DNA of 24,397 nucleotides from the NCBI GenBank assembly GCA_001724265.1, contig MEDY01000022.1:124001-148397 (forward strand). Reading direction: 5' to 3'. Shown here one piece after another: positions 1-24,397 of this stretch; within the stretch, counting starts at the first letter, position 1; each line of letters begins with the position of its first letter. The DNA is from Rhizaria sp. SCN 62-66 (lineage: Eukaryota). Under the pieces are notes generated by a model. The model was not told the origin of the DNA, searched no databases, and saw nothing but the letters and a program-made list of their open reading frames with translations. The position numbers and the translations under genes are program-made.

Positions 1-3000
1 CGCGTGAGCCGGCGCTGGCCGAAAGAACGCGCCTGCTTGTCCTTGCCTACCACGAGCTTATCGTCGGACGCGCCGCTCGACATGGACTCGGTCTCGAACT
101 CGTCGCCCGTGCCCTTCCCGCCGCCCGCGCCGCCCTTGCCCGCGACGGGGGCCAGCATTACCGAGCTGGCGGCGCTGCTGGCGGACCGCCGGCCAGCGGC
201 CTGGCGACGCTTCTGCAGCGCAGCCGAAGGGGACTCCATGACTCCGCCGGCGTTGCTGTTGTCGGCGACGCCGGGCCGTTGCACGACGTCGAGTGACTGG
301 TCGAACTTGCGCACCTGCCGCTGCGCTTGCGCGAGGCGCGCCGCGGCCGGGGTCATGAGGCCGCGGCTGCCGGGTGTCGCGGCGGGCTGGGGCGAGAGCA
401 GCCCGTCCTTGCCGGCGCCGCCGCCGTTGGCCGCGCCGGTGGGGCCGGCGGCGATGGTGGAGTTGGAGGCCGTGCCGGAGACGGAGGTGGGTACGACATG
501 GCCGATCATGCTGTTCGAGTCCATCTGGTCGTTTTCCAGCTCGTCGACGGCGAGTCCAGCAAGCAGCGAGCGGCCGACGCGGGGCCCGCCGTCGTCGTCG
601 TCGTCGGCGCGGCGCCGCGAGTGCATCGACACGAAGCTGGCGTCCGAGTCGTCCTCGTCGTCCTCCTCCTGCACCACATCGGAGATCATAGCGCGGATGA
701 ACATCACCGTCGTCTGAATCACCGTCATCGATAGCGACCACGCGCGCAGCGGCACTTCACGGTGCGTGTCGAAGTTGACACCGTTGCCGGTGTAGCCCGC
801 GCGCGTGGCCATGCCGGCCCAGTTGCGCTCCGCGGCGTCTGAGTCGTCAGAGTCGGAGAGCGCGGGGATGATGTCGCTCAGCTTGATCTGACCCGACGCC
901 ATCTGCTGGCGGCGGATGCCGAAGAACTGGTGGCAGTTGGCCGTGGCGTAGAGCACGCGGCCCGACTTGGGGTCAAGCAGGAAGTGCACGTCGCGCGGGT
1001 GGTCGATCGCCTGGATGACGCCGACCATCTTGGCGTTGGCTTCGTCGGACCAGCGCACGTAGAGGTTCACGGGCATGATGAAGTTGTGGCGGTGGCGCGC
1101 GTACGCTACACGCGTCTGGTTCACGATGCGCGATGTCTTGCGGACTAGGTAGTCAGAGACTATCTGGTCGTGCAGCTCCGCGATGGGCGAGGGCACGACG
1201 ATGTTGATGCTCTGGCCGACCAGGTCCGCGGTCTGGAAGTAGCCGAAGAGGCGCTTGGCGGCCGGGTTAACGCTCTCGATGATGCCCAGCTTCTGTCGGT
1301 CGACCGAGATGCCGAACACGGCGTTACGCTCGTCGAAGATGTCGAGGTTGCTCTCAAGCCGCTGGAGAAAGTCGCCGCTCTGCAGCGTGTCGCGCATCGT
1401 CTTGGCACGCTGGAACTCAATTGCCTCTGCGCGCTCGAACAGCGCCATGGCCTTGGAGGTGTTGCCCTGGAGGTCGAGCACGACGGCGCCGTAGGTGCGC
1501 AGCACGGGAACCGAGTTGGGGTTGATCTGCAGCAGCTTCTCGTAGTTGGACGTGCCGCGCGCGAGGAAGAGACGCGCATCGTGGCCGATCTTCGCCAGCG
1601 TGTCGATGTCGGGCGCGGGCCGTAGCAGCTCGGTCCAGAAGTCGACCAGCAGGCGCGAGGCCGAGACGATCGAGGAGTCAGCAACCTCCTTGCGCGACTT
1701 AAACTCGAGGTACGACTGAACCTCGGAAGACTGTGAGGCCATGCGGAGACTGTCAAGCATGAGGCGCAGCCGATGCTGCGTGAAGCGCGTGGGGAAGGAG
1801 CGCGTGCACGCCTCGCCGGCCTGGAGCTCGCCGTACGACAGCACGCGGTTGTCCATCACCTGCATCATGTAGCGCGCGAAAAAGGTGTGGAGCTCGGCGG
1901 AGCGCGGGAAGCGGTCGATGCCGAGCTGCAGCACCGTCTCGATGTGCTGGAAGACCTCCTTGCGGCGGTCCAGGTGCGCGCTAGTCGCTGCCTCGACGTA
2001 GATGCCGTAGCCGCGCACGTGCACCTGGTCGTGCCAGTGCCAGAGCATCGCGCGCGCGTGCAGGATGAACGCCTAGGGCGAAGTCAGGTCGCGCGTGCGC
2101 GCGTGGGCCGACTGGGCGTATCGCGAGCGGACGAGAATGACGGCAATGATGACGAGGAGCGGGAAGCCGCCGTAGAGCAGCATGGCGGCGCCGGAGTTGG
2201 GCGACGTTAGGCCGATGATGGTTGCGAGGAAGGCCGTGAAGCCGGTCCACGCGAGCGCAAGCGCCTGGATCGTGGCGAGGATCTGCGCGTCGTCTGCGTA
2301 GCGCGGGAGTTCGTAGACCTCGTAGACGGTCAGCATGACGCCCAGCGCGGTCATGATGATGGACACGGGCCAACGCCAAGACGTGGTGTGCGACACGGCG
2401 TTGAAGATGCAGAGGATGCCGAGCGTGACGGAGTAAGCGGCCGTGCTGAGGCCCGTGACCTGGGCAAAGATGGGCGCGCGCTTGTTGACCGCGACCGGGA
2501 TTGTGGGGTCGAAGCACATGATGGCGACAAGCGTCACGGCAGCGAAGAACATCACGAAGATGAGCGCGCCGAAGATGGCCGCGACGTAGAACTCGGTGGT
2601 GTGGCAGAGCACGTTGGGGTAGAACGTGTGGGGCGCGTTCTTGGCGCTGTAGAGGCAGCCGAAGGTCATGCGGATGAGTCCGTTGCCGATGGGCACTGTG
2701 CCAATGGAGCTGATGATCATGACGGCCACGCGCGAGACGCGGATGGGCTTGGTCCAGCCGAAGTATCTCAGCCCAACGCCCGCGAGGAAGCTAAAGATAA
2801 CCAGAGCAAGCGCAAGCGCAAGAGAGACAAAGAAAGGCGTCGCCAGGTTGGAGGTGGAGTTGGGGAACTCGGCGAGCGCGCGACAGATGGTCATCATAAC
2901 GTGCGTGATGCCAGTGTGCCACTGTGAGTGCGCAAAGGAAACGAAACCGAGCGGGGATTTGAGATGAGAATGATATGGGGATGTGACTAGGAGCATCAGT

Positions 3001-3474
3001 ACTGTGACTTGATAGCGCAGTGTGAGATAGCTTGAGGGGAGAAGACAGGGGATGGACGGTTGTAACGTACCTCGAAGTCAAGCATCTTGTCCGAGCCAAA
3101 ACTGACGAGCTGGAGGAGCCCGACGAACCAGAGGAAGTAATAGTAGGCGCGATGCATGTCCCAGTCACTGGCCAGGACGTCCATGAACCAAAAAAAGCGC
3201 TGGTTGGCCATGTCGAACCATTCCATAACCACGTGCACGAAGCCCTCATACTTGGCAGAGTCCTTCAGGTGGGGCGGGTTGTAGCGAGAAAAAAAATGCA
3301 CAGTCAGCAAACGGAGTGTGGTGAGTATGCGATTGAATGTGTGGATGAATGGTGAATTGTCATGCCGAGGCAAACAGTTTTAGAAGAAGGCAGACGTACC
3401 CTGAGTGTTGTGTGGATGTTAGACTGCAACAGGACCTCAGTCCCGTCGTCACCACCCCCTTTGTCAGTGGACAT
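1..3474 (-). CDS. TmcB/TmcC-like multi-pass membrane protein with TPR-like region and PAS domain(s); 3'-partial; contains in-frame TAG at 2073-2075
   Basis: Exons 3474-3400 (MSTDKGGG...HTTLR), 3262-3071 (DSAKYEG...MLDFE) and 2921-<1, joined by phase-0 GTACGT..AG introns. Several hydrophobic TM segments are followed by TAG (codon 372) and then ~690 open codons to the window edge, which the ORF track misses because there is no stop in the window. These include FWTELL...YEKLLQINPNSVPVLRTYG (TmcB-type TPR region) and a PAS signature IIESVNPAAKRLFGYFQTADLVGQSINIVVPSPIAELHDQIVSDYL. Confidence 0.85.
2922..3070 (-). other. spliceosomal intron (149 nt)
   Basis: GAG|GTACGT ... ctcacag|TGG, phase 0; joins two membrane-protein-like ORF segments. 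Confidence 0.85.
3263..3399 (-). other. spliceosomal intron (137 nt)
   Basis: GTACGT donor, GCTGAC branch-like motif, T-tract, first downstream AG (AAG); keeps frame. The exact acceptor is less certain (the next AAG is also in phase). Confidence 0.7.
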
Positions 3475-4454
3475 TTTTGTAGAGGGCACACCAAGGTTCA
3501 GTGTCCCAGAAAATTAAAACAGTAGACAGAACCTCAAGTGCAGTAGTGTCCAAACAGCCGAAATTTAATCAGGCGGTTGAAATCAAGGCAAAAGCAGCAA
3601 AAAGGTGCGGCCGTTTAAGAGCCAGTTGGTGGCGTCCAACCGGCGTGGTAGGAGCCGCAGCGCAATTTCCTCCGACGAGAGGCCGAGGACCGAAAAAGTC
3701 TATTGAGCAGAATTCACAAATAAATGTTTTCGAGCTTATAACTAATGTATATACAATGTAATACAACTTGCTGCAGCTTATTTAGCTTTACTCCATTTAA
3801 AAACTTATGTTATGTCTTGTTCAGGACTTGTTTTGTCGCAATAATGTGAGTCACAGTTTGCAATTGGGACGAGATGTTTAACTTAAATAAGTTCGTATCA
3901 CGAGACAAAATGGGCCCAAACAAGGAGAATGAAGACATTTGCAACGACTTGGTGATATAATAATGAGGACAAACTAGGCTAAAACACAGACAACTCTGTT
4001 TTGAACAAGCTTTCGATATGTAATGCTAATTATTTGTCGAGAATGCCCATGGTTAAGGATACAAACGTCAGAACGAGTGAGAAAAGCAAGACAATGCCGA
4101 CCGTAGCAGTCAGCAGTAGAAGTTATATTTTTATGACAAAACATTCTTTTACATATGCAGATTATATCCGAGATTTGTCCACACCGATGACTATTATGCT
4201 TGGTAAGCAACCTGAAGATTGTGTTGTTGAGAGGCTGAGATGAAATCTAGCCGTTGGTGACAGCCGTCCAACGGATGAGGTTGAACCGATTCTTAACACT
4301 GTTGCTACTGCAGTACCAAAGCATTAAGACAAGTTCCTACCTTTTTTCACAAAAACAATAGTGCGCTCACAACTTATGAATATTTATTATTTTCTTTACA
4401 CTCATTACCTACTTCTAAAAACTTCATACCGATCTTTCACCCGTTGGCTCGCAG
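3475..4454. promoter_or_regulatory. AT-rich divergent intergenic region between the TmcB-like and FYVE genes
   Basis: Head-to-head start codons at 3474 (-) and 4455 (+); contains CCAACGG motifs. Confidence 0.55.
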
Positions 4455-7400
4455 ATGTCCGCTCCTCGGGAAGCCGACGAAGGCACTGCCTTTGCCGCTT
4501 TCTTCGGCGCCGGCACCGACACGCCTACCCGGCGTCCTCAGATCGACACATCAGATCCTTTTGACATTGCGGACGAGGATGAAAACAACTACATCGGGTT
4601 CGGCGGCGCCGCAGACTCGGCCAAGAACACGCCCACCCAGACCGTCAAGTGCAGCATCAACTCTAAGCTTTCCAAGCTCGGCGCACCCAAGCTGCCTGGA
4701 TCTGGCAACCGCACTGCGCCTGTGCGCAACGCCGCAACCCCACAGACGATTGGATTTGCCCCTCGCGCTAGCAACACCCCGTCGACCCCTTCAAACACCC
4801 GCGCGCGCGCGGCGCCTGCCCCGACTCCTCGCGGCACGACGCCTCGCGTTGCCCCATCCTCTACTGCTCGGTATGTCAAAATATCCACATATAACTCGAA
4901 CACTGTATTTAACACACTTTGTGATTTCCTTACCGTTGTTACACTATCTGATTTCACTTTGATAACAAGTTGAATCCCGTCTTTTTCTATTCTCACGCCA
5001 ACCTCTCTCTTTGCTCTTGCACGCGTTTGCTTTCTCTAGTCCGCCTCTGTCTGCAACGCGCGCGACCCCGCAGAAGCCCAAGTCTCTGCACGAGCTGGCG
5101 CAGGGCATGAAGCTCACCATGACCCTCGGCGGTGGCGGAGGCTCCGACTCCGACTCGGACGACAACTGCACCGCAAACACAGTCAGCAACAACAACAACG
5201 ACAGCGGTGTCGCCGTCTCGTCTCTGATGCGCAGCACGCCTCTCCGCAGTACTGCCGCCGACGCTGACACCTCGTTTGCCGATGTGTTCGCCGCGCATCT
5301 GGGCTCCGGCGCCGCGTCCGTAGTCGCCACCCCTGCTCGCCACGGCGGGCATGGCCACGCGAACGCCCCTCCTACCAACACGTGCGCCGCGCCGTTCGCG
5401 TCCCCGATCCACGCCGCGGCCGCTGACTCACTCGCCGCCGCATTCCTCCAGGACCAGGCCGCCGAGGCCGCTGAGACGGAGAGCGGCAGTGCTACGACTG
5501 TGTCGGGCGGTCTGCTGGCGTCGCTGTTGGATGACCTGCCCGCCGCCACTGCTGATTGCGATGGCCTCATGAATGCCGACGCTAGCGCCGCCGACTCCGA
5601 CGCTGCTGCTGCTCCTGTTGCCGTTGCTTCCGAGAGTGAGCTTGACAGTGACGGTAACGCTCGTGCGGGCCTGACCAAGCTCCACTTCTCCCCTGGCTTT
5701 GATAGTGTTGGCGCCACCGGCGCTGCGGCCGCCGCCGACGGCGACGACGTCATCATCCGCGTCAAGATGTCCTCCGCGCACAGCTTCTCGCACGCCATTG
5801 GCGTCACGCCGCGCGCCGCCCCCGCCGGGCAGACGCTGATCATCAACCGCACGGGCCCCATGTCCCCGCAGCAGACCGCCGTCAAGGCGGGCTCGATGCT
5901 CTCCCCGACTGGCGGCAGCGGCGCGATGCGGCGCCGCCGCTCGTCCTTCGCCCCCGGCAGCCCAGGCTTTGGCGCCGGCACCGCTGGCGGCCGCCGCGGC
6001 TCTATGGCGCCGATTGCTGAGCTCGACCTGGCAGCTTTCCGCGCTGAGAACAGCATCAAGCCGAGTGACGCCGACTCCAACGGCGACTGCACTGTCAGCA
6101 GCAACGCCCGCATCGCGCACCTGAGCGACTCCGAGGCCGCCGCGGCGCTGATGGCGCGCTACCGCGCCCTCCGCGCCGTGTGCGACTCGCCGACTGGCGC
6201 CGCGATGACTGCGGGCCGCAACATGCCCGATAGCACTAGCAACCGGCTCGACGCGACAATGACCGAAATTGACGAGCTGTCGGACGCGCTGCAGGGCGTC
6301 GAGGACTTTCTCAACACGTTCCAGTCGTCTCCCTCCGCCGCAGCGGGCGGGCGCAAAAGATTCACCTTCACTCTGTCGAAGGAGGAACAACGCGCTCTCA
6401 AGGAGAAGGCCGAGCGTCTGTCATTTTCACTCGAGTGCGGTGACTTCGACTGCGGCGAGTTCGAGCCCATCACGCCGCTCTCCAACAACAACGCCAACGG
6501 CAACGACAATGCCGGCGACGCTGCCGTGGTGGAGCTGGACGCGACGCGCGCCGAGCGGGCCGTCCGCCGCCGCAGCGCCCGCGCGAGCCTCGACCGCGTT
6601 AACACCATCCTGTCTATGCTCGAGCCGTTGCCTGAGGCCGAGGTCGAGCCCGACTGCAGCAACAACAACAGCGGCAACAACGCGACTGCCGGCAGCGGCG
6701 CGCGCTTTGCTTTCGTGGCCAAGATGAGCTCACCTGAGCGCAGCCTTATTACTGATGCTGATGTTGATGCTGAGGATGAGGCTAACGCCACAGCTGTTGC
6801 CGCCGCCACTGCTGTTGGCTCTGTCACGCCCGCTGCTGCCGCGCCCACTCCCAGCCGCGGTGGCCGCTTTGCGTTCGGCTCCCCGTCCACTGCTCCGACG
6901 CCCCGCACCTCGCGCTTCGCTTTCACCGCCGCAACTCCCAACAACAACAACAACACTGCTGCTGCTGCTGATGCTGATGCCGAACCTGTCGCGGCTGTCG
7001 AGTCTGTGCTCACTTCGCCTACCTCTGTTGCTGCCGCTGCGCCTGCCGCTGCGCCCGCGTCGGCAAAGCGTTTCGCCTTTGGCTCCCCTGCCGTTCAGAA
7101 CACTGCCAGTGCTGCCGCCAACGCCAGCGCGACCCCGCTCGCGACCGCGCGCTTTGCCTTTACGTCCCCCGAGCCCATGTCTCTTGCCAACGCGAACAAC
7201 AGCGCTGCTGTCGCGGCTGCTACGCCGGCTGCTGCGACACCTGCTGCTGGAAAGACTCCTTCTCGCTTTGCGTTTTCTGCTGCGACGCCTACGGCTGCCA
7301 CTGCAACCGCCGCTGCCACTGCTACGACCCGCTTTGCTTTCTCGCCCGCTCCCATCATCTCTACCGTGGGCAACACCGCAAGAGTCGAGCCTCAGTCCTT

Positions 7401-10400
7401 GCTCGCCGACGCCGGCGCCGCTGTTAACTCGAGCACCGCCGGCGTCGACTGCGAGGCCGGGTTTGTGCAGACGCGCCGCCGCCGCACGCTGCGCTTCAGC
7501 TACGGCGCGCCCGTGCTGGGCAGCCCCGTCGGGCTGCTCAACGACTCGGCCGCGGACTCGGTCGTGGTCGACATGGCGTCGCCGCCCCGTACGGCCGCCG
7601 CGATGGCCGGCGCTGACCTCGATGCGCTGCCTGCAGTCACATGTGCTGCTGCTGTCGAGGAGGACGGCGATGCTGAGGTTGTTGCCGCGACTGCCGATGA
7701 CGTGAACGAGGGCGCGTTTGTTGATGGCGACGATGAGCACGACAACATGAACAATATTAGCACTGCCAACAAAAACGCTGTTGCTGCTGTTGAGGCCAAT
7801 GTTGATGTTGATGCCGAGGTCGAGACTCACGACGATGATGAGGCCTGCGACGATGATGACGATGATGAGGGCATGGCTGCTCTTGTAAAGCTTGCTCTTA
7901 ACGCTTCCGATTGCAACAATGTCACTGACGACAGCCACATCGATGACAGCGCCGTTGCCTGCGACTGCTCCGACTCTGGCATCAACACCAGTGGCGTAAA
8001 CGCGTCGTTCGTGTCTATCCGCAACGCCGTCGACCTTTCACTGGGCGCGATCAGTGAGGAGAACAGCGACGTCTCCGAGTTTTACGCGGACCGCAACGAC
8101 CTCAACATGAGCGGCTTTGCGCTTGCCGCAGAGCGTGTCAAGGCTGCCGAGGAGGCCAAACTTGCCGCCAAGCTTCTTGCTGACGAGGCCGCCGCCGTTG
8201 CCGCTGCTGAGGCTGAGGCCAAGGCCGCTGCTGAGGCTGCTGCTGCCGTTGCCGCCGAGGAGGCACGCCTTGCTGCTGAGGCGGAGGCTGCTGCCGAGGC
8301 AGAGCGCATCACACTTGCTGAAGCTGAGGCTGCACGTCTTGCCGCTGAGGCCGAGGCGGCCTGCTTGGCAGAGGTTGCCCGCCTTGAGGCCGAGGCAGAG
8401 GCTGCACGCCTGGCTGAGGTCACTCGCTTGGAGGCGGAGGCTAAGGCTCAGGCTGAGGCAGAGGCCGAGGCCGCTCGTTTGGCTGAGATCGCACGTCTTG
8501 AGGAGGAGGCACGCGCTGCTGAAGTTGCCCGCCTGGCCCAAGTTGCAAGGCTTGAGGCCGAGGCTAAGGCTGCTGCTGAGGCTGCACGCATCGCCGAGGA
8601 GGCCCGTCTCGCCGAGGAGGCCCGTCTCGCCGAGGAGGCCCGTCTCGCCGAGGAGGCCCGTCTCGCCGAGGAGGCCCGTCTCACATCTTGAGGCCGAGGC
8701 TATTGCTGCCGCTAAGGCCGCCGCAGAGGCTGAGGCCGCACGACTCGCCGAGATTGCACGTCTTGAGGTTATCGCGAAGGCTGAGGCTGAGGCCGCTGCA
8801 GAAGCCGCGCGCATCAAGGCCGAGATGGAGGCCGCCGCTGCCGCTGCTGCTGCTACTGAGGTTGCGCGTCTGCAGGCTATTGAGGAGGCTCGCTTTGCCG
8901 CTGAGGCTAAGGCTGCTGCGGAGGCCGCCGAGACTGCGCGCTTGGCCGAGGAGGCCCGCCTCGCTGCTGAGGCTGAGGCAGCTCGTCTTGCCGAGGAGGC
9001 CCGCCTCGCTGCCGAGGCCGCTGCCGCCGCTGAAGCTGTGCGCCTCGCCGAAGTCGCCCGACTTGAAGCCGAGGTTAGGGCTGCCGCCGAGGCTGCTGAG
9101 ATCGCCCGACTTGCAGAGGTTGCGCACATTGAGGCCGTAGCTAAGGCCGCCGCTGAGGCCGAGGCTGCGCGCCTTGCTGAGGTTGCCCGTCTCGAGGCCG
9201 AGGCAAAGGCCAAGGCTAGGGCCGAAGCCAAGGCTGCTGCTGAGGCTGAGGCCGCGCGTCTGGCCGAGGTTGCGCGTCTCGAGGAGGAGGCTCGTCTTGC
9301 TGCCGAGGCTAAGGCTGCTGCCGAGGCCGCTGCTGCAAAGGCTGCTGAGGAGGCTCGTCTTGCTGAGGAGGCTCGTCTTGCTGAGGAGGCTCGTCTTGCT
9401 GAGGAGGCTCGTTGCTGAGGAGGCTCGTCTTGCTGAGGAGGCCCGTCTCGCCGAGGAGGCGCGCCTGGCTGCTGAGGCTGCTGCTGCCGCTGAGGCTGCG
9501 CGCCTGGCCGAGGAGGCGCGTGTTGCTGCAGAGCTCAAGGCTGCTGCTGAGGCCGCTGCCGCTGCTGAGGCTGCTGCTGTTGAGGCCGCTCGCATTGCTG
9601 CTGAGGCAAAGGCCGCTGCGGAGGCCAAGGCTGCCGCTAAGGCTGCTGCGAAGGCTGTCGCGAAGGCTGAGGCTGAGGCCAAGGCTAAAGCCGCTGCTGA
9701 GGCTGCGGCTGCACGTAAGAAGGCTGAAGCTGAGGCGAAGGCTGCTGCCAAGGTTGAGAAGGAGCGCAAGAGGGCTGAGGCCAAGGCCAAGGCTGAGGCT
9801 GATGCAAAGGCTGCTGCGGAGGCCAAGGCTAAGGCTGCCACTGAGGCTGCCGAGGCTGCGCGCGTTGCTGCGGAGCTCAAGGCCGCCGAGGAGGCTGCCA
9901 CTGCCAAGGCCGCTGCTGATGCAAAGGCTGCTGCGGACGCTGTTGAGGCTGTTCGTCTCGCTGAGGAGGCTGTCGCCAAGGCCGCTGCCGAGGCCGAGGC
10001 TGCCCGTTTGGCCAGGATTACTCGCCTCGAGGAAGAGGCCCGGCTCAAGGCTGCCGCTGAGGCCGAGGTTGCACATCTTGCCGAGGTCGCTCGCCTCGAG
10101 GCTGTCGCCAAGGCTCAGGCCGAGGCGGAGGCCAAGGCTGCCGCTGAGGCTGCTGCTGCTGAGGCTGTTCGCCTTGAGGCGGAACAGGATGCCGCTGCCG
10201 CTGCTGCTAAGGCTGCCGCTGAGGCTGAGGCCGCTGCTGCCAAGAAGAAGGCTGAGGAGGATGCAGCTGCCGCTGCTGCTGCCAAGAAGGCAGCCAAGGC
10301 CGCTGCCGCCGCCGAGCGTGCCGCCGCCGAGGTTGCTGCTGCTGCGCAGCGCAAGGCCGAGAAGGAGGCGCGCCGCATCGCGGAGGAAGAAGCTGCTGCG

Positions 10401-12923
10401 CAGCGCAAGGCTGCCAAGGCTGCTGTGAAGAAGGCCGAGGATGCTGCTGCTGAGAAGCGTCGTGCTGAGAAGGCTGCTGCTGCAGCCACCGAGGCTAAGG
10501 CTGCCGCCGTGGCTAAGGCTTCCACCGAGGCCAAGGCTGCCGCCGAGGCCAAGGCAGCCGCTGAGGCTGAGGCTGCTGCTGAGGCAGAAGCCGCACGTGT
10601 TGCGGCTGAGCTTAAGGCTGCTGCAGAGGCCGCTGAGACCGCTGCTGTCGCCGAGGCTGCCCGCATTGCCGCGGTTGAGGCTGAGGCCAAGGCTGAGGCT
10701 GAACGTATTGCCGTTGCCGCTGCTGAGGCTGAGGCTAAGGCTGAGGCTGCCCGCGTCGCCACTGCGGAGGCCGAGACTGCGCGCATTGCTGAGGAGGTCC
10801 GCCTTGCCGCTGTCGCTGAGGCTGAGGCCAAGGCTAAGGCAGAGGAGGAGGCTCGTCTGGTTGCCGAGGCTAAGGCTGCTGCCGAGGCTAAGGCTACTGC
10901 TAAGGCTGCTGAGGCCGCCCGTGCTGCTGAGGAGGCTCGTCTTGCTGAGGAGGCTCGCATCGCTGCCGAGGCCGAGGCTGCCCGTCTCGCTGCCAAAGCT
11001 GAGGCTGCCCGTGTCGCTGCTGAAGCTGAGGCTGAGGCTGAGGCTGCTCGCGTGGCCAAGGAGACTCGCCTTGCTGAGCTTGCTGCCGCAGAGGCGAAAG
11101 CTAAGGCCAAGGCGGCAACTGAGGCCAAGGCTATTGAGGACGCACGCATTGCTGCGGAGGCTCAGGCTGCTGTTGCTGCCAAGGCCGCTAAGGTTGCTGA
11201 GGCTAAGGCAAAGGCTGAGGCAAAGGCTGCCGCTGACACTGCCAAGGCTGCCGAGGCTGCTGCCAAGGCCAAAGCCGCCAAGGAGGCTGCTGATGCGAAG
11301 GCTGCTGCCGACGCTGCCGCTGCCGGGGCCAAGGCTGCCGAGCGGGCCAAGGCTAAGGCCGAGGCCAAGGCCGCTGCGGAAGCTGCTGCGAAGGAGAAGG
11401 CTGCTGTTGATGCTGCAGCCAAGACCAAGGCTGTCGCCGCTGCCAAGACTGCGGCTGAGTCGAAGGCAAAGGCCAAGGCTGACGCCAAGGCCAAGGCTGC
11501 TGCTTCTGCCGCCGCTGCTTCTGCTGCTGCTGCCGCAGCCTCTGTGAGCAACACCGGCGTCAGCGCTTCCAAGCCCATTCCTCTCCCTGCTGCTGCCGCC
11601 GCCGCCGCCGCTGCCGCCGCCACCGTGACCGTGTCCCCGCGCGCGAACCTCATGGCCGCGAGCATCGCCCACTCGCTGGCGAACAACCACAGCGACATGG
11701 CATGCGACCTGCTGGCGCAGGGCAAGGTCGGCTCTGGCAACATCCTCCGCCTCTCGCTCTCCGCGCGCGACATCGACGCGCTGGCGGCGGCCACCGCAGA
11801 CAGCTCCGTGGCCGTGGCCGTGGCCGTCGTGTCGTCGGACACGGCCGCCAAGTGCACGCCCCGCGTCTCGCTGTCGCCGCACGATATCGCGGCGAACCTC
11901 GCTGTCGGCTCCCCGGTGCGCGTTAGCATCAGCGTCCTCGAGGACCACGCCAGCGCCGGTAACATCACCGCGGACGACAACACTGACTCTTGCGTTGCGA
12001 CCGAGACTGACGCCGCTGCTGCGGACGCGTCGGCCGTTGCTCTCGAGGTCAACGCCGTCATGAGCGCCCTCGTCGACAGCACCAGTCCCGCCTGCATCGA
12101 CACCAACCTCCCCGAGCCTTGCGTTGAGATCAGTGCCGCTCCTGTCGATGCTGCTGCCAATGCCGATGCTGAGTCCCCTGTCTCGGTCACGGTGCACAAC
12201 GAGTTCGAGGTGGAGATCTCGCGCACCGCACCCGCCGCACCCGCCGTGCTCTGGCACCGCTCCGCGCTGCAGCGCATCGCGGCTCGCTGGCAGCGCGCCG
12301 GCAACAGCCCGGCCTCGGCGGCCCTGGGCGCCGCGCTGGCCCGCCTCGAGGCGCTCACGGCCTGCGGCGACAGCGAGTCTATCCGCAGCGCCGTTGCGTC
12401 GGCCTTCACCAAGAAGTACAGCGAGCTGCTGCCATCGCCGGGCCAGACGGCGGTGGCGGAGAGCGTGCTGGTGCGGCTGCTGTGCCACCCGCACACGAAC
12501 GCGCCCGAGTGGCAGCCCGACGACGACGCCGTGAGCTGCAATGCGTGCACGCGCGAGTTCCGCTGGTTCCGCCGCCGCCACCATTGCCGCATGTGTGGGC
12601 TCGTCTTCTGCGCCGCTTGCTCGGCGCAGAACTCGCCGCTGCCGTGGGTGCTCGCGGCCGAGCGCGTGCGCGTGCGCGCCAAGCTGGCCGCCAAGGAGCT
12701 GCAACGCCGCACCAAGGCCGCCCGCAAGGCCGGTCGCGAGCTCACCGCCGAGGAGAAGAGCATTAGTCTTGACGCGATCGACGTCGACACCACGATCCTG
12801 CTCAAGAAAGTCGACGAGTACCGCGTTTGCGACTGCTGCGCCGCCGTCGGCGGCACGCGCCTCGCGATGCGGGTTGAGACTGAGGCTGCCAAGCGCAAGT
12901 CTGCCAACAGCAACACGCTTTAA
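4455..12923 (+). CDS. Very large (~2,770 aa) protein: disordered S/T-P-rich N-terminus, ~1,130-aa Ala/Glu/Lys/Arg helical repeat rod, C-terminal FYVE zinc finger; two frameshifts in this assembly
   Basis: Exon 1 4455-4870, intron 4871-5039, exon 2 5040-12923 (TAA). ORFs 5011-8691, 8117-9418 and 9174-12923 continue the same AEEARL-type text across frame breaks at ~8683 and ~9413. FYVE motifs: WQPDDD, CNAC, RRRHHCRMCG, CAAC, RVCDCC. Confidence 0.85.
4871..5039 (+). other. spliceosomal intron (169 nt)
   Basis: CG|GTATGT ... tttctctag|T; phase 2 restores the Arg codon and joins ORF 4455 to ORF 5011 in frame. Confidence 0.85.
8593..8682 (+). repeat. 5 perfect 18-bp tandem copies of GCCGAGGAGGCCCGTCTC (AEEARL)
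   Basis: Read directly; the frame break follows immediately at 8683. Confidence 0.95.
9344..9449 (+). repeat. ~6 tandem 18-bp copies of GCTGAGGAGGCTCGTCTT (AEEARL); fourth copy lacks CT
   Basis: Read directly; the 16-nt copy at 9398-9413 causes the frameshift. Confidence 0.9.
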
Positions 12924-13550
12924 GTGTACTTTCTATGTATAAATCAGTTTTGCATCGCACATTCTGTGGTAAGCAAGACAAACTGTAATATGCATTTCTA
13001 TTTGTTTTTTTGTTAGAGATCAATTTTAAGTCGAGGTATTCTTTTATAATTGGGTCAAATTTCCCCTTCGTACGTATTATCAATTATGGCAACAACAATG
13101 ATGCTGTTGCATGAAAAAGCATAACTGAGTTGTTTAGGACCACATGGCAATCTCGTTGTGTGAGCCTCGTGGTGACTCGAAGACAGTCGTCACGTTTTCA
13201 CTTGTTTTATGCTATCCAGAGTGTATTTTCAAACCAATAAACGATGTTTATATGAAGCATATATGATGTTTATTCTCAAGATTTTGATGTATGGCCAGCT
13301 TTAGTGCTTGTTACTGGTACCGTATGCATGCAGTAACATCGCATGATTATACGTCACAACGCATTGAATAGAAATATAAACTAAATAGGCCAATATGCAT
13401 CTGAATGTGTTTTATAACACGTTTAGTGCGCATAAATTACGTTTTCGCAACACACAGAAGTCACGACTCAGAAGTCATGACTCACCGTCGTTCTCCTTCA
13501 CTTGGCTCTTGCTTGCTCGAGTGAGTGCTTTGCGGCTTCCCTCAGAGTAC

Positions 13551-14428
13551 TCAGAAGAGGCTCTTCCACCAGGGCTTCTTCTGCCCGGCCTCGGCGGCCT
13601 CCTTCTGCTTGCGTTTGATCGCGGCCAGCTCATCGTACCACGCGTAGAGCTGCTCGCTCTTCTGCCCGCTGCGGCGCTCCTCCATGAAGTCGCGCAGCAG
13701 CTCCACCGTCTCGTCCGCCGTCTTGCCGTTGTTAAGCGCGTCGCGCGCGAGCTGGCGCTTGGTCGAGCCCCAGTAGTCCTCCTCGCGGCCGCGGCGGATG
13801 AGGTTGCGCATGTAGATCATGCCGCACATGAGAACGGGCATGTAGCCCGCCATGCGCCGCTTCACCCACAGCGCGTTGAGCTCGCGGCCGGGCACGCGCA
13901 TAGCGATCGAGCCCAGGCCCATAGCCGGCAGCAGCGCGCGGCGCTTGGCCAGGTCCGTCTCGACGATGTAGCGCTCGGCGGCGCGCGTCTGGCCGACGCT
14001 TTGGATGTACTTCGTCCAGCCGTAGGCGAGGATGCCGTAACAGGCGAACTGCTCCGCGATGTGCTCGATGTACAGCGTCTTGGCCATCCAAGTGCTGTAC
14101 AGCGGAAAGCGGGATGTCGAGTCTGCGGGGGTTTAGTAAGGTCGGATACGAACGTGTAGTACGCAAAGTGAGCGGAGTAAGGTACGTAAAAGTGGAAGTC
14201 GAACGTTCGGAGTGCGAAGAGCGCAGAGCATGGTATATGACGGAAGGGAAACGTACGCGGGGGCTTGGGGGGGTTGTCAAGGTACTCCTTGCTCTGGAAG
14301 GGGTCAACGCCGTCGACGAGTAGGATGGGCTTCTCCTTCTTGACAGGGGCAGCGGTGGTGACGGCAGCGTTGACAGCGATGTTCATCGTGGGTGCGGGGG
14401 GCGTGGCGGGGGAGGCTGCAGTAGACAT
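13551..14428 (-). CDS. Hypothetical 247-aa protein, 2 exons
   Basis: Exons 14428-14257 and 14122-13551; the phase-1 intron yields ...NPPKPPHSTSRFPLYSTWMAKTLYIEH...KKPWWKSLF, ending in TGA; strong C/G third-position bias. Confidence 0.8.
14123..14256 (-). other. spliceosomal intron (134 nt)
   Basis: C|GTACGT ... actaaacccccgcag|AC; frame-preserving. Confidence 0.8.
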
Positions 14429-14848
14429 GTAACCTTCGATATAGAGTGTTTAAATAAGGAATTAAAAGGATACGGATGAGTCATACTCGGGAATCGAACA
14501 ATTTTCCTAACAGTCGGTTCTGACACCTCGTGTTCATATCCTCCGCAGGCTTGTCCACTGAGCTCTGTTCGCCCACGGTCCTGGTTGGACATGGGTGGTG
14601 ACGGGGACCAATTCTTTCCGCTCGGTGCATTCCGTAACACATCCTTGAACAGAGTTAGTTCTTCCATAAAAGGACTTTAGTGCAAGTTTTCCATGCTATA
14701 TTACTTAGAAATTTTGCAAAGCAATGGGAATTACCGTCAACTTCGCCCGGGAAAAGCATGGGTCTTGTTGTCTCGTTTCGGGCCTGCTCGCACTTCGTTT
14801 CGCTCACCGTTTACACTTCTTTACTCACTTTTCTGACTTTTAGCGGTG
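14429..14848. promoter_or_regulatory. Compact (420 bp) putative bidirectional promoter between the orphan gene and purA
   Basis: Head-to-head ATGs at 14428 (-) and 14849 (+). Confidence 0.55.
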
Positions 14849-16279
14849 ATGTTCTCCGCGACATCTCTGTCCAAGCTTGCCCCGCGCGGCGCTTCGTCCG
14901 CGCTGCGCAGCACCGTCGGCCGCGTTTCCTCCGCCGCGCTGTCCCGCCGCACGGCTGTGACCAACGCTGCGACCGACAAGTTCGCCACCAAGGCCGGCCT
15001 GGCGACTGTGCTGGGTGCGCAGTGGGGCGACGAGGGCAAGGGCAAGCTTGTTGACATCCTTGCGAAGCAATACGACATCATCGCGCGCTTCAACGGTGGC
15101 GCCAACGCCGGCCACACGCTCGTCGTCGAGGGCAAGAAGTTCCCTTTCCACCTGCTTCCCTGCGGCATGCTGTACAAGGACAAGCTCAACGTCATCGGCA
15201 ACGGCGTCGTGCTCGACCTCAACACCATGAAGCGCGAGCTGCAGACGCTCTGGGACGCCGGCCACGACACGACAAATAGGCTCGTGATCTCGGACCGCGC
15301 GCACATCGTGCTGCAGATCCACAAGGACGTCGACGGCGCGCTTGAGAACAAGGCCAACGTCTCCGGCACGGCCATTGGCACCACGCGTCGCGGCATCGGA
15401 CCGACGTACTCGTCCAAGGCCAAGCGCGACGGGCTCCGCGTCGCCGAGCTGGTGGGCGACTGGGACACGTTCGTGCAGCGCCACACGGCGCTCGTGCGCT
15501 CGCTGCAGACTATGTACGGCGTCTCGCCCGCCGACTACGACCTGGAGGGCGAGCAGCGCCAGCTCAAGGAGCACGCCGAGATGATCCGGCCCTGGGTTAA
15601 GGACACGGTCTCGCTGCTCAACAACGCGCTCAACGATGGTAAGCGCGTGCTGGCCGAGGGCGCCAACGCGTGTCTGCTCGACATGGACTTCGGCACCTAC
15701 CCCTACGTCACCTCGTCGTCGACCACGGTCGGCGGCGTCGCTACGGGGCTCGGCGTCGCGCCCACAAAGCTGGGCAGCGTTATCGGCGTTGTCAAGGCCT
15801 ACACGACGCGCGTCGGCGCGGGCCCATTCCCTACGGAGCTGACGGACGAGAACGGGAAGCAGCTCTGCAAGGTGGGCCACGAGTTCGGCACCACCACGGG
15901 CCGCGAGCGCCGCTGCGGCTGGCTCGACATCCCCGTGCTGCGCTACTCGAACATGGTCAACGGCTACTCGTCGATCAACATCACCAAGCTCGATGTGCTG
16001 TCGGGCTTCAAGGAGATCCAGATCGGGACACACTACACTGTCAACGGGACGCGCCTGCCCGATGGCCACATGCCGGCCACCATCCCCGAGCTGGCCAAGG
16101 TGCAGGTCGAGTACGAGACCGTGCCCGGGTGGATGTGCGACATCTCCAAGGCCAAGTCCTTCGCGGACCTGCCCGCCAACGCCCAAAAGTACGTCAAGCG
16201 CGTCGAGGAGCTGCTCAACATCCCCGTGTCCTACATCGGCGTCGGACCCGGCCGCGAGGAGATGATCTCTACGCAGTAA
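14849..16279 (+). CDS. purA: Adenylosuccinate synthetase with N-terminal extension
   Basis: Motifs GAQWGDEGKGK, GGANAGHT, IGTTRRGIGPTY, DFGTYPYVTSS, EFGTTTGRERRCGWLD, TKLDVL, IGVGP; intronless CDS; TAA stop. Confidence 0.98.
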   Translation: MFSATSLSKLAPRGASSALRSTVGRVSSAALSRRTAVTNAATDKFATKAGLATVLGAQWGDEGKGKLVDILAKQYDIIARFNGGANAGHTLVVEGKKFPFHLLPCGMLYKDKLNVIGNGVVLDLNTMKRELQTLWDAGHDTTNRLVISDRAHIVLQIHKDVDGALENKANVSGTAIGTTRRGIGPTYSSKAKRDGLRVAELVGDWDTFVQRHTALVRSLQTMYGVSPADYDLEGEQRQLKEHAEMIRPWVKDTVSLLNNALNDGKRVLAEGANACLLDMDFGTYPYVTSSSTTVGGVATGLGVAPTKLGSVIGVVKAYTTRVGAGPFPTELTDENGKQLCKVGHEFGTTTGRERRCGWLDIPVLRYSNMVNGYSSINITKLDVLSGFKEIQIGTHYTVNGTRLPDGHMPATIPELAKVQVEYETVPGWMCDISKAKSFADLPANAQKYVKRVEELLNIPVSYIGVGPGREEMISTQ

Positions 16280-16820
16280 GTAAACAACGCCAAACTTCTA
16301 TACCATTCGATCGTGTGCTGTTCCAGTTTGTTTGAAGATGGTGTTTTGTTGCTCTGTTTTCCGTCTGCTGTCGTGTGAGTCGCACCAAGCACGGTTGTGC
16401 GATGTGTTCATGCGAGCAGGCTTTCTTTTGGTTTACGTCTATAGTTTTATAGCCTTATTGTTGGCGCAGTGGTTTTGCGTCTCTTAGTTTCTGTTTTGTA
16501 TGGGACAGGGAGGTTTCAGTGCCGGTTTGCAATTGATATGTCGATCTGACCACAAACGTTGTTTCCACTTCGCTGTCCGCCAAACCTAGCCTTCCAAGCT
16601 TTTCCTTTGTCTCGACCCGAGAGGGTTTATTTATGTGCTGAGAAGCACATTCTTTGATATCATACATTTGAAGTAATTTCAAACTTGAAATTTAATACTC
16701 TTGGCTTTTGACGATCATCCCACGCTTTTCCAGCTCATCTTAATCTGTTGCTTTCGCATCTCACCACTCTCGATCTCAGTATACAGCACCCCTGCATTCC
16801 TTTGATAACCCCGCCACACG

Positions 16821-19800
16821 ATGAGGCGCCGTGGTCGCGAGATCGTCGCCGACTCCTACTTTAATCCTGACGAATGGGAGCCCGTGGTGTCGACACCGGG
16901 GGCACAACTGTCCTCTCCCTTCGCCCCCAGCACCGTACGCCAGGCCATCGCTGTCCCCACCGCCGTCTTTGCCGCTGCTGCTGCCGCCCAGCCCCAGCCT
17001 ATGACAGGCGCTAACGCTCCCGCCAACATCTTTGCCTGGGCGCAGTCGCTTACCGCAGCTGCATCACGTACCACTGACACGTCAACCGATAGCGCGTCGT
17101 CTGCGGCGGAGGACGCTGCTGCCGATCCGATGTCTGCAATGCCTGGGCAGTGGGGCGAGGTGACTGCGGTATCTCTTGCGGTGACTGCGCTTGAGCAGAT
17201 TGTAGTATACCGCGCCGGTGACACTGTTGACGATGATGCTGACGCAACTGATGCTGATGTCAACAACACTGATGTTGGTGACGATTCAAGCGCTCGGATC
17301 AACAACTGTAATAGCAGCGCAAACAAGAACTAGTCCAAGAACAAACGCAATGCCCCCAATGTTGTAGCAACCGACGATAACGTGGACACTGCTTACGATA
17401 CTGCTGCAAACAACGCCGTCAAGCACATGGGCAAGAACAATGTTACAGTCTACGACAGGCAATCCGACGGGGCGAGCCGCGGCGGGCAACGAAGCGGCAA
17501 CACCAGCAGCTACTACAAGAAGTCTGCTGATGACCACGACGACGGCCTAGACACGACCCAGCGCGCTGCGTTCCCGCTTTCGATGGACTTCCTGGCAAAG
17601 AAGACTCGCAAGCAGGCGCAGCTGCGCCGCAGCAAGGCCACCAAGAGGGCCCGTCCTGCTGCTAGCGCCGCTACTGGTGCTGCTGCTGCTGCTGCTGATA
17701 CCGCAGGCGCTGACACTGATGCTGCTGACGATGCTGCTTATGATGACATCGAAACTTTCAGCGACGCTGACGGCGAGGGCGAGGGTGATTATGGCGATGG
17801 CGAAGAGGACGTCAGTAACTGTGATATTGAGGACGAGGAGGATGAGAGCTGGGATTGGGACTCGAAGGGGCTGCCGACGACTGCGGAGGAGTACCTGTAC
17901 CGCGTGCGTGTCGAGGCAGGGCGCATCACGACGGTCGTTGACTCGAGCGCGAGCGCTGGCTCTACCACTGCCGGCAACACAGAGACTTCGAACAGTGTCA
18001 TCACGACGAACTCGAACTCGAGTTTGACGAGTGCTGCGACACCTGCGAACGATGCGATGACTGACGATCCCGTTGGTGTATCTGTACCAACTGTGAGCGG
18101 CGCAAAGAGCGACGCCAATGCTGCTGACGCTGACGTGGCAAGTTGCGATCCTGCCATTCAAACTGACAATCCTGATGTCACCATTGCGGCGAGTGCCGAC
18201 TCAGACCGCAGGAGTACCCATGCTGTTATCAAGGCTGCGTCTTCCCCTGGGGCAAAGTCTACTCAGTCGCACTCTCAGGCGCAGTCGTCGCAGCCGGCAT
18301 TGACGCCCTATCAGCGCTATTTGGCCGCCGCGCGCGCTGCCCGCCCCCACCCTGCTCTTGTCCCTGCGCAAAACAGCATTACAAACACCCATCACGGGGC
18401 CCGTGGTAGTGCCTGCTGCGTCAGCGACGCTGCGGTCGCCGCAGCAACTGCACATGTGACCCTCAAGGCCCTCCGCAGGTACCTGCACCAACACTGGTCC
18501 CACTACAGGCACGGCATCGTCGTCTCCGTCACAAACGCTTTTTTACTCGCCGACGCCCACCGTCTAGTGGCCCCTGCGCTCTCGCAGTCGGTCCCGGCCG
18601 CGTACTTCGCCGCGGCGGCTGCCGATGTGGCGCTCACGGGCGGCCAGTTTGTCGGCGCAGGCTGGGGCGACAGCGGGCAAGTGACCGTAAACAGTGACGG
18701 CGCTCTCGTCAGCTCTACCTCTGCATCTCAGTCCGGGAGCGCTACGGTTAACATGGCTGTCAGTGCTGCAGTTGAGATGGCTCAGCCGTGGTCGGCCAAT
18801 AGCGGCAACAACAGCAACACGTCGCTGAGCACCCCGTTCTGGCCTTGGTACCCGATGCAGTCTGAGGCGGCCAACACGCACACGAGCGATGTTTCAGCTG
18901 CGAACGCGTGTGTCACCAAGTCGCCCTGGCGCCCTGGGGCCTCCGGCGCGAGCGTCGACCCCGACGGACCCGCTGCTCTGCTGCACATTCTCGGCACGCG
19001 GCTTACCTTACCGACTAAGGGGTCGCTGAGATCTGGGGCACGGTCAGTGAACCGGCTGACCATGAGTCCGAGTGCGCAGTTACGCGCTTTTTACTCTCAG
19101 CAAGTCAATAGCGACGAGCCACAGGATGCGGAAGTCGAGGCTCCTGGCGGTGCTGCCAGTGAAGATGCAAGTTCCAATGCAGCTCTTGAGAGCGAGATGA
19201 TGCCGTGTTTCGATGTGTTGTATCTCTGCCTTCCTCACCATCAGGGGTCCTCCGACTCACAACAACCTTTGCACCCGTTTGTGATGCCGATGTTGCCACC
19301 GCTGTATTTGCGCTCGAGTAGTGACTATCCAGACAGTGATCCGCTTCCATGCGGCCACAAGCCGGATGTTTCTGCCGACAATGTGGTGGCAGCGGCTGAC
19401 CCATCTGCTGCGATGCCATCATCGCCTCCTGCCACATTTACAAAGCGCCAACCTACACTGCGCAGCGTCAATAGCACAGCCGGTACCATAGGAAACGAGG
19501 CCGGCAACAACGACGATAACACCGACGATGCTCTGCTGCCCCCGCCACCGCCCCCGCCCCAGTCCGAGACCCCACCTCCGCCGCCGCCTCCGCCGCCGGC
19601 CGACGACGCTGCCGACTCACCGTCACGTGCAGACGGCTCACAGTCGCTGGCCTCTGACTCAAAGCCGCCTGCTCAGAGCTCACAGTCACCTGCGCAAGGT
19701 GCGCAGTGTGGCGTGTGTGCACCGCTTCTAAAGGGCGCTGTTGCAAGCGTAAAGACAGTGCTGCAGCTTGAGCCAGTTGTCATCTCCGCGCTGTTGCCCG

Positions 19801-20414
19801 CGCTTGCGACTACAATGACAAGCGAGTGGGATGCGATCATCAGTGTCATGAAGACGAGTGACTGTGAGCAGCACATGTTCTCGACCGCGCGTACAATGCG
19901 CACGTTGATCCAGTTTGCTGACACTGAAACACGCGGCGCTAGCCCGGCGAGTGATGCGGCGAGCAGCCAGGATCGCGCTGCTGAGCCGGCGACTGCTGTC
20001 GACACAGTGCTGGCCCTGCCTGTGCTCTCGGCCCACGCGCTGCAGTGGCTGTGGTTGCTCTGCTGCGCGGCTGACACGCCGTTGGACGCGGACGCTGCGA
20101 GCGCGCTCAGTGCCCTGCACAGGATGCTGGGTGCGGTGCGGAATACGCTGGCGAAGGCAGTCGTCAGGATCGCCAAGGTGGCAGGACACAAGAAGAGTGG
20201 CGGTGTCGACTCTGAGAGTGACTTTGCAGCGTTACTCTCACCGAATGCGGTGCTACCCGCGTACGTGGAAGGCAGCGCTGACGACGAAGCGGGGTCAGAG
20301 ACCGTGGCTGCTCTGCCGGCTGAGTGGAGGCGCGCTGTGACGGGCGTCGCGGGCCAGTACTCGGCTATTCTCCGAGTCATTAGGACCAGGTTCCGCCAAG
20401 GTTCATTCGAGTAA
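16821..20414 (+). CDS. Gemin2 (SIP1)-like SMN-complex protein, expanded to ~1,197 aa; in-frame TAG at 17331-17333
   Basis: ORFs 16821-17333 and 17382-20414 are in the same frame, separated only by TAG. Gemin2-like motifs: LPTTAEEYLYRVRVEA (from 17871), LQWLWLLCCAADTPLDADAASALSALHR (from 20040) and C-terminal ILRVIRTRFRQ; TAA stop. An alternative start ATG lies at 17427 if TAG is a true stop. Confidence 0.7.
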
Positions 20415-20785: not shown

Positions 20786-21532
20786 ATGAGCACTCAAGAC
20801 ATGAAGCGCCCCGTTCTGGAGGTCTGGGAGCCTACCTACCGCATGAAGCCTTCCGTTGATGAGTCATTCATCCCCGTCCAGGTCGAGACCATCATTAAGG
20901 AGGTCACCGACCGCCGTCTCCGCAAGGTACGTTACCGCCACCCTCGTCTCCCTCCACAACTTGCCCTGATCTTATACTCCTATTCGTTCTCCTCTCGGAC
21001 TGTCCCATTTTTGCTGGTACTGACCCCTCTCCAATTTACTATTCCTGCGCTTCTTTTCACTTGAGTAGGTTCAATACGACGAGGCGACCTGCCGCCAGCT
21101 GTCTCAGGAGCTCTGCGTTGAAATCAAGGACCGCGTTAAGGGTACGTCATTGTAGCTATGAAAATTTGTAAATCTGCTTGTCGTTGTTTCTTAACGATGA
21201 TTTATCTTGTGCCATATAATCTAATGTAGCATTATCTCACTGCTCAGAGTTCTCCGCTCACAATCCTTCCTTGTCTCTCTCTTTGCTTTGCCACTCACTC
21301 TTTGCCTCTATCTTCACTTCGCTCCGCTGATCTTGCCTGCTTCCGCTCAGAGCTCAACCTGCCCCGCTACAAGCTTGTCCTGCAGAGCGTGATCGGCGAG
21401 GTCCAGGGCCAGGGCGCGTTCACTGCGTCCCGCTGCTTGTGGGACACCGAGGTGGACAACTACGCCTCGTACTCGTTCAAGAACGCCTCCATCTTCTGCG
21501 TTGTCATGGTCTTTGGCATCTACGTCGACTAA
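20786..21532 (+). CDS. Tctex1-domain dynein light chain (TCTEX1D2/Tctex2b-like), 131 aa, 3 exons
   Basis: Exons 20786-20926, 21069-21141, 21351-21532; motifs TYRMKP, IKDRVKELNLPRYKLV, IGEVQGQG, SRCLWD..DNYAS, FCVVMVFGIY; TAA stop. Confidence 0.92.
20927..21068 (+). other. spliceosomal intron (142 nt)
   Basis: AAG|GTACGT ... tag|GTT, phase 0. Confidence 0.88.
21142..21350 (+). other. spliceosomal intron (209 nt)
   Basis: G|GTACGT ... gctgat...ctcag|AG, phase 1 giving GAG. Confidence 0.9.
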
Positions 21533-23351: not shown

Positions 23352-23353
23352 TG

Positions 23354-24222: not shown

Positions 24223-24397
24223 TTAGTCGACCTCCTCAACCTTGACGTTGGCAGGACCGGAGGAGGGCGCGTTGCCGCCGCCGAAGCCCGCATCCTCTCC
24301 GTCGCCCATGCCAGCGCCAGCAGCGCCGTCGGGCATGCCGCCGGCCTGGTAGAGCTTGGTGATGATGGGGGCGCAGACGCCCTCGAGCTCCTTCTGC
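24223..24397 (-). CDS. HSP70: Cytosolic Hsp70, C-terminal fragment (5'-partial)
   Basis: [24 protein letters not shown]...[11 protein letters not shown] followed by TAA; EEVD terminus; not in the ORF track. Confidence 0.95.

Follow-up and report, generated by a model that had tools for sequence, protein, structure and literature searches.

Reassignments of UAG and of UAA nearly always go hand in hand, and nuclear codes in which UAG alone is affected, few as they are, serve as key cases for the co-evolution of eRF1 and transfer RNAs (tRNAs). The UAG-only codes compared here are all mature, with UAG common in genes, as far as the accessible portions of the two reports go (PMC11687900, PMC5304391). 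In phyllopharyngean ciliates UAG makes up 6.5–32% of the codons of its cognate amino acid and affects 78–91% of genes (PMC11687900, accessible text), the rhizarian exLh has 384 UAG in 71 genes and Iotanema 204 in 126 genes, with 1.6–5.4 UAG per gene (PMC5304391, accessible text), and the green-algal Scotinosphaerales are described as carrying TAG at TCC/TCG serine positions, with TAA and TGA as stops (PMC8271138, in the part available; cited in PMC11687900). Here we analysed a stretch of 24,397 nucleotides of contig MEDY01000022.1 from Rhizaria sp. SCN 62-66 (the window), in which a TmcB-like gene (site 1) and a Gemin2-like gene (site 2) each contain a single in-frame TAG, together with a third TAG in a TmcB-like paralogue on another metagenome contig (L004). 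These data do not yet separate a rare new genetic code from premature stops of the ordinary kind, and our reading leans against a code change.

The locus resembles each of these systems in part. As in the Scotinosphaerales, TAG is the only stop affected, genes end in TAA or TGA and none was seen to end in TAG; their TAG stands where relatives have a TCC or TCG serine, and here a conspecific strain has TCG at site 1. Unlike here, where ~7,500 codons contain 3 TAGs, all of them outside conserved housekeeping parts, the TAGs of Scotinosphaerales are reported from many genes including actin and GPI (all from the available part of PMC8271138). The codes of exLh (Leu) and Iotanema spirale (Gln) likewise show in-frame UAG only, with terminators that are exclusively UAA (the majority) and UGA; their UAGs, however, concentrate at hyperconserved Leu or Gln positions, whereas here there are 0.33 per gene and the aligned residues are inconsistent (PMC5304391, in its accessible sections). 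The phyllopharyngean ciliates (UAG to Leu or Gln) prefer UAA as stop after the loss of UAG, as seen here, and their habitat overlaps with that of wastewater protists; they differ in that suppressor tRNAs were found and in a genome GC of 27–54%, against a coding GC of ~65%, introns of 150–210 nt with GTAYG starts and no tRNA at hand in our case (PMC11687900, in the portion seen). Our literature search found no paper on this organism or on a UAG change in a GC-rich wastewater protist. Premature-stop polymorphisms and young pseudogenes, as they are generally known, share with the locus a sense allele in a near-identical strain, persisting stops near protein ends, no downstream decay as yet and a mutational bias that favours TAG in a genome of G/C-ending codons.

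Three TAGs inside open reading frames

Pfam and open reading frame (ORF) analysis showed that the window is eukaryotic DNA with 8 genes over both strands (Table 1). An earlier interpretation made from the letters of the window alone (the sequence-only reading) had noticed one in-frame TAG in each of two genes, and both stand up to analysis, lying in unique sequence with coding signal on both sides. At site 1 the minus-strand frame 3–3077 is open apart from the single TAG. The product matches TPR_TmcB (PF25474) with an E-value of 9.7e-17 and 61.5 bits, against a gathering cut-off of 27, and PAS (PF00989) at 7.7e-9, and the G+C content at third codon positions (GC3) is 0.89–0.91 on either side of the TAG. 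Exons 1 and 2 match the uninterrupted N-terminus of a homologue on contig L001, and six homologues align residue for residue across the TAG, in a locally well-conserved stretch. Full-length homologues (on the near-identical contigs L001 and L002, and on L003 and L005) consist of one open frame of 1,709–1,920 codons. Because homologues align without a gap across the TAG and relatives have an uninterrupted frame, this TAG is, going by the alignments, within a conserved coding sequence (CDS), neither intronic nor intergenic. The six homologues have R/H/H/H/S/Y at this column, the Ser being that of P0005. The window protein itself gave no match in JGI metagenome contigs, and the family alignment found nothing among genome contigs or viral contigs. 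Another family member, P0003 (Logan, 1270 aa), ends within a transmembrane segment where all homologues continue for ~300 residues; it may contain another in-frame stop or an intron.

At site 2 the plus-strand frame 16809–20414 is open apart from its single TAG. The 174-codon frame 16809–17333 has a codon score of 0.72 per codon, continuous with that of the downstream frame. An in-frame ATG (17427) lies 31 codons after the TAG and ahead of the only conserved domain, Pfam SIP1 (PF04938; 1.8e-9, 38.2 bits against a cut-off of 27), which is matched in two stretches, both after the TAG, and starts 174 residues past it. A standard-code gene caller already yields a 995-aa Gemin2-like protein starting past the TAG, and P0007 is 100% identical to it over 995 aa. 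The 170-aa upstream ORF corresponds to P0008, present on 6 contigs; among 1.84 billion representatives it has no homologue beyond itself and one low-complexity match, and the N-terminal 480 residues of the read-through protein match only the window's own 995-aa product. Since the upstream part is without homologues, site 2 cannot be judged by homology. GC dips to 0.47 around 17241–17360, near intergenic values, and the start-codon contexts of 5 genes gave no consensus favouring ATG 16821 or ATG 17427.

Splicing does not remove the window TAGs, in that the introns lie elsewhere and homologues align across site 1; no GTAYG intron start was found near either of them. One GT...AG pair at site 2 (17308–17367, 60 nt, frame-preserving) was considered as an intron and rejected: its start (GTAATA) departs from the consensus, its length is a third of that usual for introns here, and it sits at a local maximum of the coding score. 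As a separate observation, both window TAGs are enclosed by perfect 6-bp palindromes with a CTAG core, CCTAGG (2071–2076) and ACTAGT (17329–17334), and the L004 TAG is not (GTAG); by rough estimate the coincidence is ~1%, and we put forward no mechanism for it.

The third TAG came to light when JGI metagenome contigs were searched for matches to the family alignment. L004 encodes a paralogue, carried on a contig of 44,961 bp, that is 48% identical to the window's TmcB-like gene in the best segment, and the two genes agree closely in relative synonymous codon usage (r = 0.97) and in third-position A/C/G/T frequencies (0.03/0.56/0.35/0.06 in L004, 0.03/0.57/0.33/0.06 in the window gene). Its 1,178-codon frame stops at a TAG (3536–3538), which is followed by 223 codons in the same frame up to a TGA; the TAG stands at residue 1593 of ~1816 (88%). 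Past the TAG, the sequence is homologous to the family's C-terminus and finishes at the same point as the homologues do; at the TAG itself five homologues have G and one has M. The TAG-terminated product recurs on at least 6 contigs (JGI, ENA, Logan). Among the more distant contigs, long frames of 993 and 1,775 codons (L003 17414–20395 and L005 16867–22194, minus) end in TAG; this lower-GC relative (GC3 ~0.55) appears to use TAG as a terminator at what are putative gene ends.

Strain comparison and stop-codon usage

The window was compared with three runs of metagenome contigs (X2, X3 and X4) and one RNA run (X5), which may contain DNA. X2 and X3 come from different studies and years, yet their 8 long pieces are the same, down to coordinates and depths; a single data set probably underlies both, and it is not counted twice. 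Their contigs reproduce both window TAGs, with 0 differences over 16506–17558. The independent run X4 keeps the TAG at site 2, with 0 differences over 15999–18388, and differs from the window at 3 positions in the eight long pieces listed, which together span 10,132 letters (~0.03%). At site 1 the single contig of X4 reads G for T at place 2074 (3.3 of 3.3 depth), giving TCG (Ser) on the gene strand, and X2/X3 keep TAG with no other letter (0 of 4.97 depth). Checking the TAG letters in other data thus confirmed site 2 in X2/X3 and X4 and site 1 in X2/X3, and failed for site 1 in X4; a sense allele one step from TAG was found at site 1 only, site 2 being TAG in all runs compared. In-frame UAG that is reproducible in independent data and lies outside introns holds at three sites, with L004. 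Because X4 has TCG and is otherwise nearly identical, the site-1 TAG arose or was lost very recently, as a deleterious or young nonsense allele would be expected to do; it is a very young difference between near-identical strains and not a fixed sense codon, and site 1 consequently no longer supports a code change independently.

The TAG/TCG pair is also the sole direct hint at an amino acid. The sequence-only reading had favoured Gln, for which we found no support; if UAG is decoded, Ser is hinted at instead, on account of TCG in X4 and Ser in the homologue P0005, and the hint is weak. Five other coding differences between strains or runs (6719, 10293, 12414, 19998 and 20260) are all nonsynonymous, namely A>V, A>V, V>L, K>Q and A>T, and fall on codon position 1 or 2, never the third, despite a strong third-position bias. 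TAG and TCG therefore need not be a synonymous pair. A consistent amino acid at the in-frame TAGs was not found either: the residues vary at site 1, with Ser among them, and differ again at the L004 site. All columns are variable, so this test has little power.

The seven gene ends of the window were read as all TAA or TGA from the start, and this is correct: TAA is used at 12921, 16277, 20412 and 21530 (plus) and 24223 (minus), TGA at 13551 and 21995 (minus), and TAG at 0 of 7. With L004 there are 5 TAA, 3 TGA and 0 of 8 TAG. By our own arithmetic, a TAG share of 15–30% among terminators gives 0 of 7 with P = 0.32–0.08, in agreement with the initial caution that two sites and seven stops are not decisive. 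Likewise, we confirmed that no in-frame TAA or TGA interrupts the reconstructed CDSs, the only other breaks being two frame changes in repeat arrays. When the 41 window stops with at least 60 open codons on each side, in any frame, were ranked by codon-usage score, the two TAGs came 1st and 3rd; the 2nd was a TGA in an antisense frame of the repeat gene.

TAG is rare. There are 2 in ~6,100 window codons and 1 in 1,402 codons of L004, and as a serine codon TAG would represent 0.5% of Ser codons (2 TAG against 362 Ser in 5,466 codons counted). This density is at least 8-fold lower than in the published UAG-sense lineages compared, and internal UAG is not widespread as it is in the UAG-only codes, affecting 3 of 9 genes. 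No TAG was found in purA (476 codons), the giant FYVE gene, the Tctex gene, the MYND gene or the Hsp70 end. Under the codon usage of the window, 55–57% of one-step nonsense changes yield TAG, with TCG as the source in 9–11%; three of three being TAG by mutational bias has a probability of 0.56 cubed = 0.18. TAG-only interruptions are for this reason not odd in themselves.

Premature stops or a decoded UAG

The likelihoods worded below are rough judgements, not computed posteriors. We consider that there is about an even chance that the standard code holds and that the in-frame TAGs, all three, are premature stops that differ in age and lie in tolerant genes or gene parts. Site 1 would carry a nonsense allele of recent origin, made by a C-to-A change from TCG to TAG, which the bioreactor population from which the window derives has and another strain lacks. 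At site 2, the TAG would truncate a lineage-specific low-complexity N-terminal extension, and the conserved part could be started at the ATG 31 codons downstream. In L004 the TAG would drop the last 12% of one paralogue in a multi-copy transmembrane/PAS family. The polymorphism, the positions of the TAGs, the downstream ATG and the mutational bias towards TAG are observed; termination of translation at the TAGs, and tolerance of the truncated products, we infer. The positions matter here, since reading TAG as sense predicts uniform positions, and the two non-polymorphic TAGs fall 14% and 88% of the way along their proteins, in regions where a premature stop is most readily retained.

Several results weigh against this reading. 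Three single-TAG interruptions in 9 genes (8 in the window and L004) are far above the expectation for a healthy genome and an unusually high load for premature-stop polymorphisms, all of it TAG, and the same 9 genes show no interruption by TAA, TGA or a frameshift in unique sequence. TAG ends none of the 8 genes, for which P = 0.06–0.27 at a TAG share of 15–30% (own arithmetic). Decay after the TAGs, in the form of further stops or frameshifts, was not seen; the frames remain open, codon bias is undiminished and conservation is equal, which fits only very young stops, or translation. Around site 2 the codon-usage score stays above zero without a break from ~16760 to beyond 18100, with a local maximum that spans the TAG and the 31 codons before the next ATG. 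In L004 the 223 residues past the TAG hold the most conserved motif of the family, which a premature stop would remove, at a GC3 of 0.90 and with full codon bias; identity to P0015 is 0.52 both before and after the TAG, there is no excess distance to four outgroups, and the TAG is present in every assembly on record (P0020 on 4 contigs, P0004, P0021 and L004), a TAG-free full-length form sought at 771–2454 aa not having been found. Nor does the polymorphism at site 1 alone exclude a code change: the change from TCG to TAG is equally likely under either code, and it counts mainly against an old, fixed sense codon at that site.

It is possible but rather doubtful that UAG specifies an amino acid, either fully or leakily by way of a suppressor tRNA, with UAA and UGA terminating; the uncultured, flagellated, GC-rich protist would then have a nascent or low-usage UAG-only nuclear code. 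This is the view to which the sequence-only reading came when it took UAG for a rare sense codon, and part of it stands: the TAGs are real, coding and unspliced, the coding sequence around them is continuous, the two contigs involved share their codon usage, no TAA or TGA occurs in frame, no terminator is TAG, and L004 adds a third case. TAA is preferred at gene ends (5 of 8) though third-position A amounts to only 3–10% in five window gene sets and two L004 stretches, the parts after the TAGs are intact and constrained like those before, two of the three TAGs occur in every assembly seen, and all three are in variable columns. Ser at site 1, in strain X4 (TCG) and in P0005, has a precedent in the Scotinosphaerales, to judge from the part of PMC8271138 at hand. 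The other part is unsupported, in that site 1 is unfixed, the density is low and the residues are inconsistent (R/H/H/H/S/Y at site 1; five G and one M at the L004 site). So low a density would fit no decoding but a very recent or inefficient one, strains ~0.03% apart disagree at one of only two TAGs that could be tested, the non-polymorphic TAGs are both near protein ends, and purA and other conserved parts have none. In addition, no tRNA was found in the window or in L001–L005, and the nonsynonymous nature of the five other strain differences leaves no need for TAG and TCG to be synonymous. Each reading asks for something unlikely: the standard code would have to accommodate three TAG-only interruptions in 9 genes with TAG absent from 8 terminators, and a code change a rare kind of lineage, a usage level never yet seen and two stable TAGs near protein ends.

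It is improbable, in our estimate, that the three sites have different causes, with a nonsense allele at site 1, a pseudogene copy in L004 and, at site 2, a TAG that truly ends a 170-codon ORF or small gene of its own, which would make TAG a working stop. Gene callers do give the 170-aa ORF (P0008, 6 contigs) and the 995-aa protein (P0007) separately, and the GC dip around 17241–17360 comes close to intergenic values; however, the gap from TAG to ATG is 93 nt, against roughly 370–1,230 nt between the other adjacent genes of the window (own arithmetic), both frames coincide, the codon score peaks locally across the gap, and the 170-aa ORF is without a homologue. Correction of the mRNA, with UAG turned into UGG by site-specific A-to-I editing, or a programmed readthrough at certain UAGs, would explain why only TAG is affected and why downstream frames are intact; we hold it to be very unlikely, given that the three sites share no post-stop context (TAG G, TAG T, TAG C), that no RNA contig with another letter is listed at the sites, with nil RNA cover at 2074, and that we know of premature-UAG editing only from filamentous ascomycetes. 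A sequencing or assembly artefact at the TAG positions is hardly credible. Depth is low (~3–7) and the assembly has frame errors in repeat arrays, but the sequence at the TAGs is unique, X2/X3 and the independent X4 agree on site 2, the window and X2/X3 agree on site 1, and the L004 TAG is on at least 6 contigs from JGI, ENA and Logan.

If an early or leaky reassignment of UAG alone were true, UAG would be gone as a terminator, and a suppressor tRNA, possibly a tRNA-Ser in view of the TAG/TCG pair, would let new in-frame TAGs arise and remain at low frequency. Such a lineage would represent a natural case of an 'ambiguous intermediate', the transitional state debated by the codon-capture and ambiguous-intermediate models, and, if Ser is right, only the second UAG-to-Ser nuclear code. 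If the TAGs are premature stops under the standard code, the locus is ordinary, yet it calls for caution: G/C-ending codons make most nonsense mutations TAG and can thereby mimic a code change.

Genes, introns and lineage leads

The window sits within a 139,679-bp contig, and its DNA is present in bioreactor, wastewater and activated-sludge metagenome runs. GC is 63–70% in coding parts and 35–50% in spacers. Seven introns could be defined, of ~150–210 nt, which start with GTACGT (5), GTACGC (1) or GTATGT (1); in the MYND gene, an in-frame TAG after exon 1 falls within an intron. No tRNA genes were found in the window or in L001–L005, and no Rfam families were found. The genes of the window do not include eRF1.

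Table 1. Coordinates of the in-frame TAGs and of the genes of the window
Feature	Coordinates	Strand	Details	Basis
In-frame TAG, site 1	2073..2075	minus	exon 2 of TmcB-like gene, ~20% into protein	
In-frame TAG, site 2	17331..17333	plus	N/K/S-rich low-complexity stretch, codon 171 of 1197 (14%)	
TmcB-like TM/TPR/PAS gene, exon 1	3071..3226	minus	from its ATG	
TmcB-like gene, intron	2922..3070	minus	GTACGT...CAG, 149 nt	
TmcB-like gene, exon 2	3..2921	minus	runs past window edge; TPR_TmcB and PAS domains downstream of TAG	Pfam
Giant Ala/Glu-repeat coiled-coil gene	4455..12923	plus	C-terminal FYVE domain; intron 4871-5039; internal TAG none; end TAA	
178-aa gene, family unassigned	13551..14087	minus	GC3 0.94; end TGA	
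Adenylosuccinate synthetase (purA)	14849..16279	plus	presequence-like N-terminal extension; internal TAG none; end TAA	Pfam 2.4e-172
170-codon open frame	16821..17330	plus	ATG up to TAG, same frame as Gemin2-like gene	coding-like codon usage
Gemin2/SIP1-like CDS per standard-code gene caller	17427..20414	plus	995 aa; end TAA	P0007, Pfam SIP1
Tctex2/LC2-type axonemal dynein light chain	20786..21532	plus	three exons; end TAA	
zf-MYND (C-terminal) gene	21995..23353	minus	three exons; end TGA	Pfam
Cytosolic Hsp70, C-terminal end (...EEVD)	24223..24396	minus	end TAA	

The two frame changes of the repeat gene both fall within arrays of the EEARLAAEA type (8111–9418, 8671–8691, 9141–9418). One X2/X3 contig is without 7 nt at 8671–8679, and with this omission the first two frames of the gene would join. 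Because of it, at least the first apparent frameshift is a repeat-assembly variant and not a sign of a broken gene.

The Tctex-family gene scored 64.8 bits with Tctex2B/LC2 outer-arm dynein light chains, against 35 bits with cytoplasmic Tctex1. Because an axonemal outer-arm dynein light chain is encoded, the organism is, by its gene content, one that builds motile cilia or flagella at some stage. As for its relatives, the scores of purA against Protein Data Bank (PDB) entries, 455–467 bits, are equal across animal, plant and fungal enzymes (which we take to be those of mouse, wheat, Cryptococcus, human and Arabidopsis) and do not discriminate between lineages. The Atlas neighbours of purA are clusters of chlorophyte and streptophyte 'chloroplastic' adenylosuccinate synthetase (AdSS), and those of the TmcB-like family are clusters labelled Ciliophora; both are leads only. 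The extension of purA (14849–15010) places ~50 residues ahead of the conserved domain, rich in S/A/R/T with one acidic residue (Asp), and looks like an organellar targeting peptide such as that of plant and algal 'chloroplastic' AdSS. The 178-aa gene at 13551–14087 matched no Pfam family above threshold and no PDB relative, and it has the strongest codon bias of the window.

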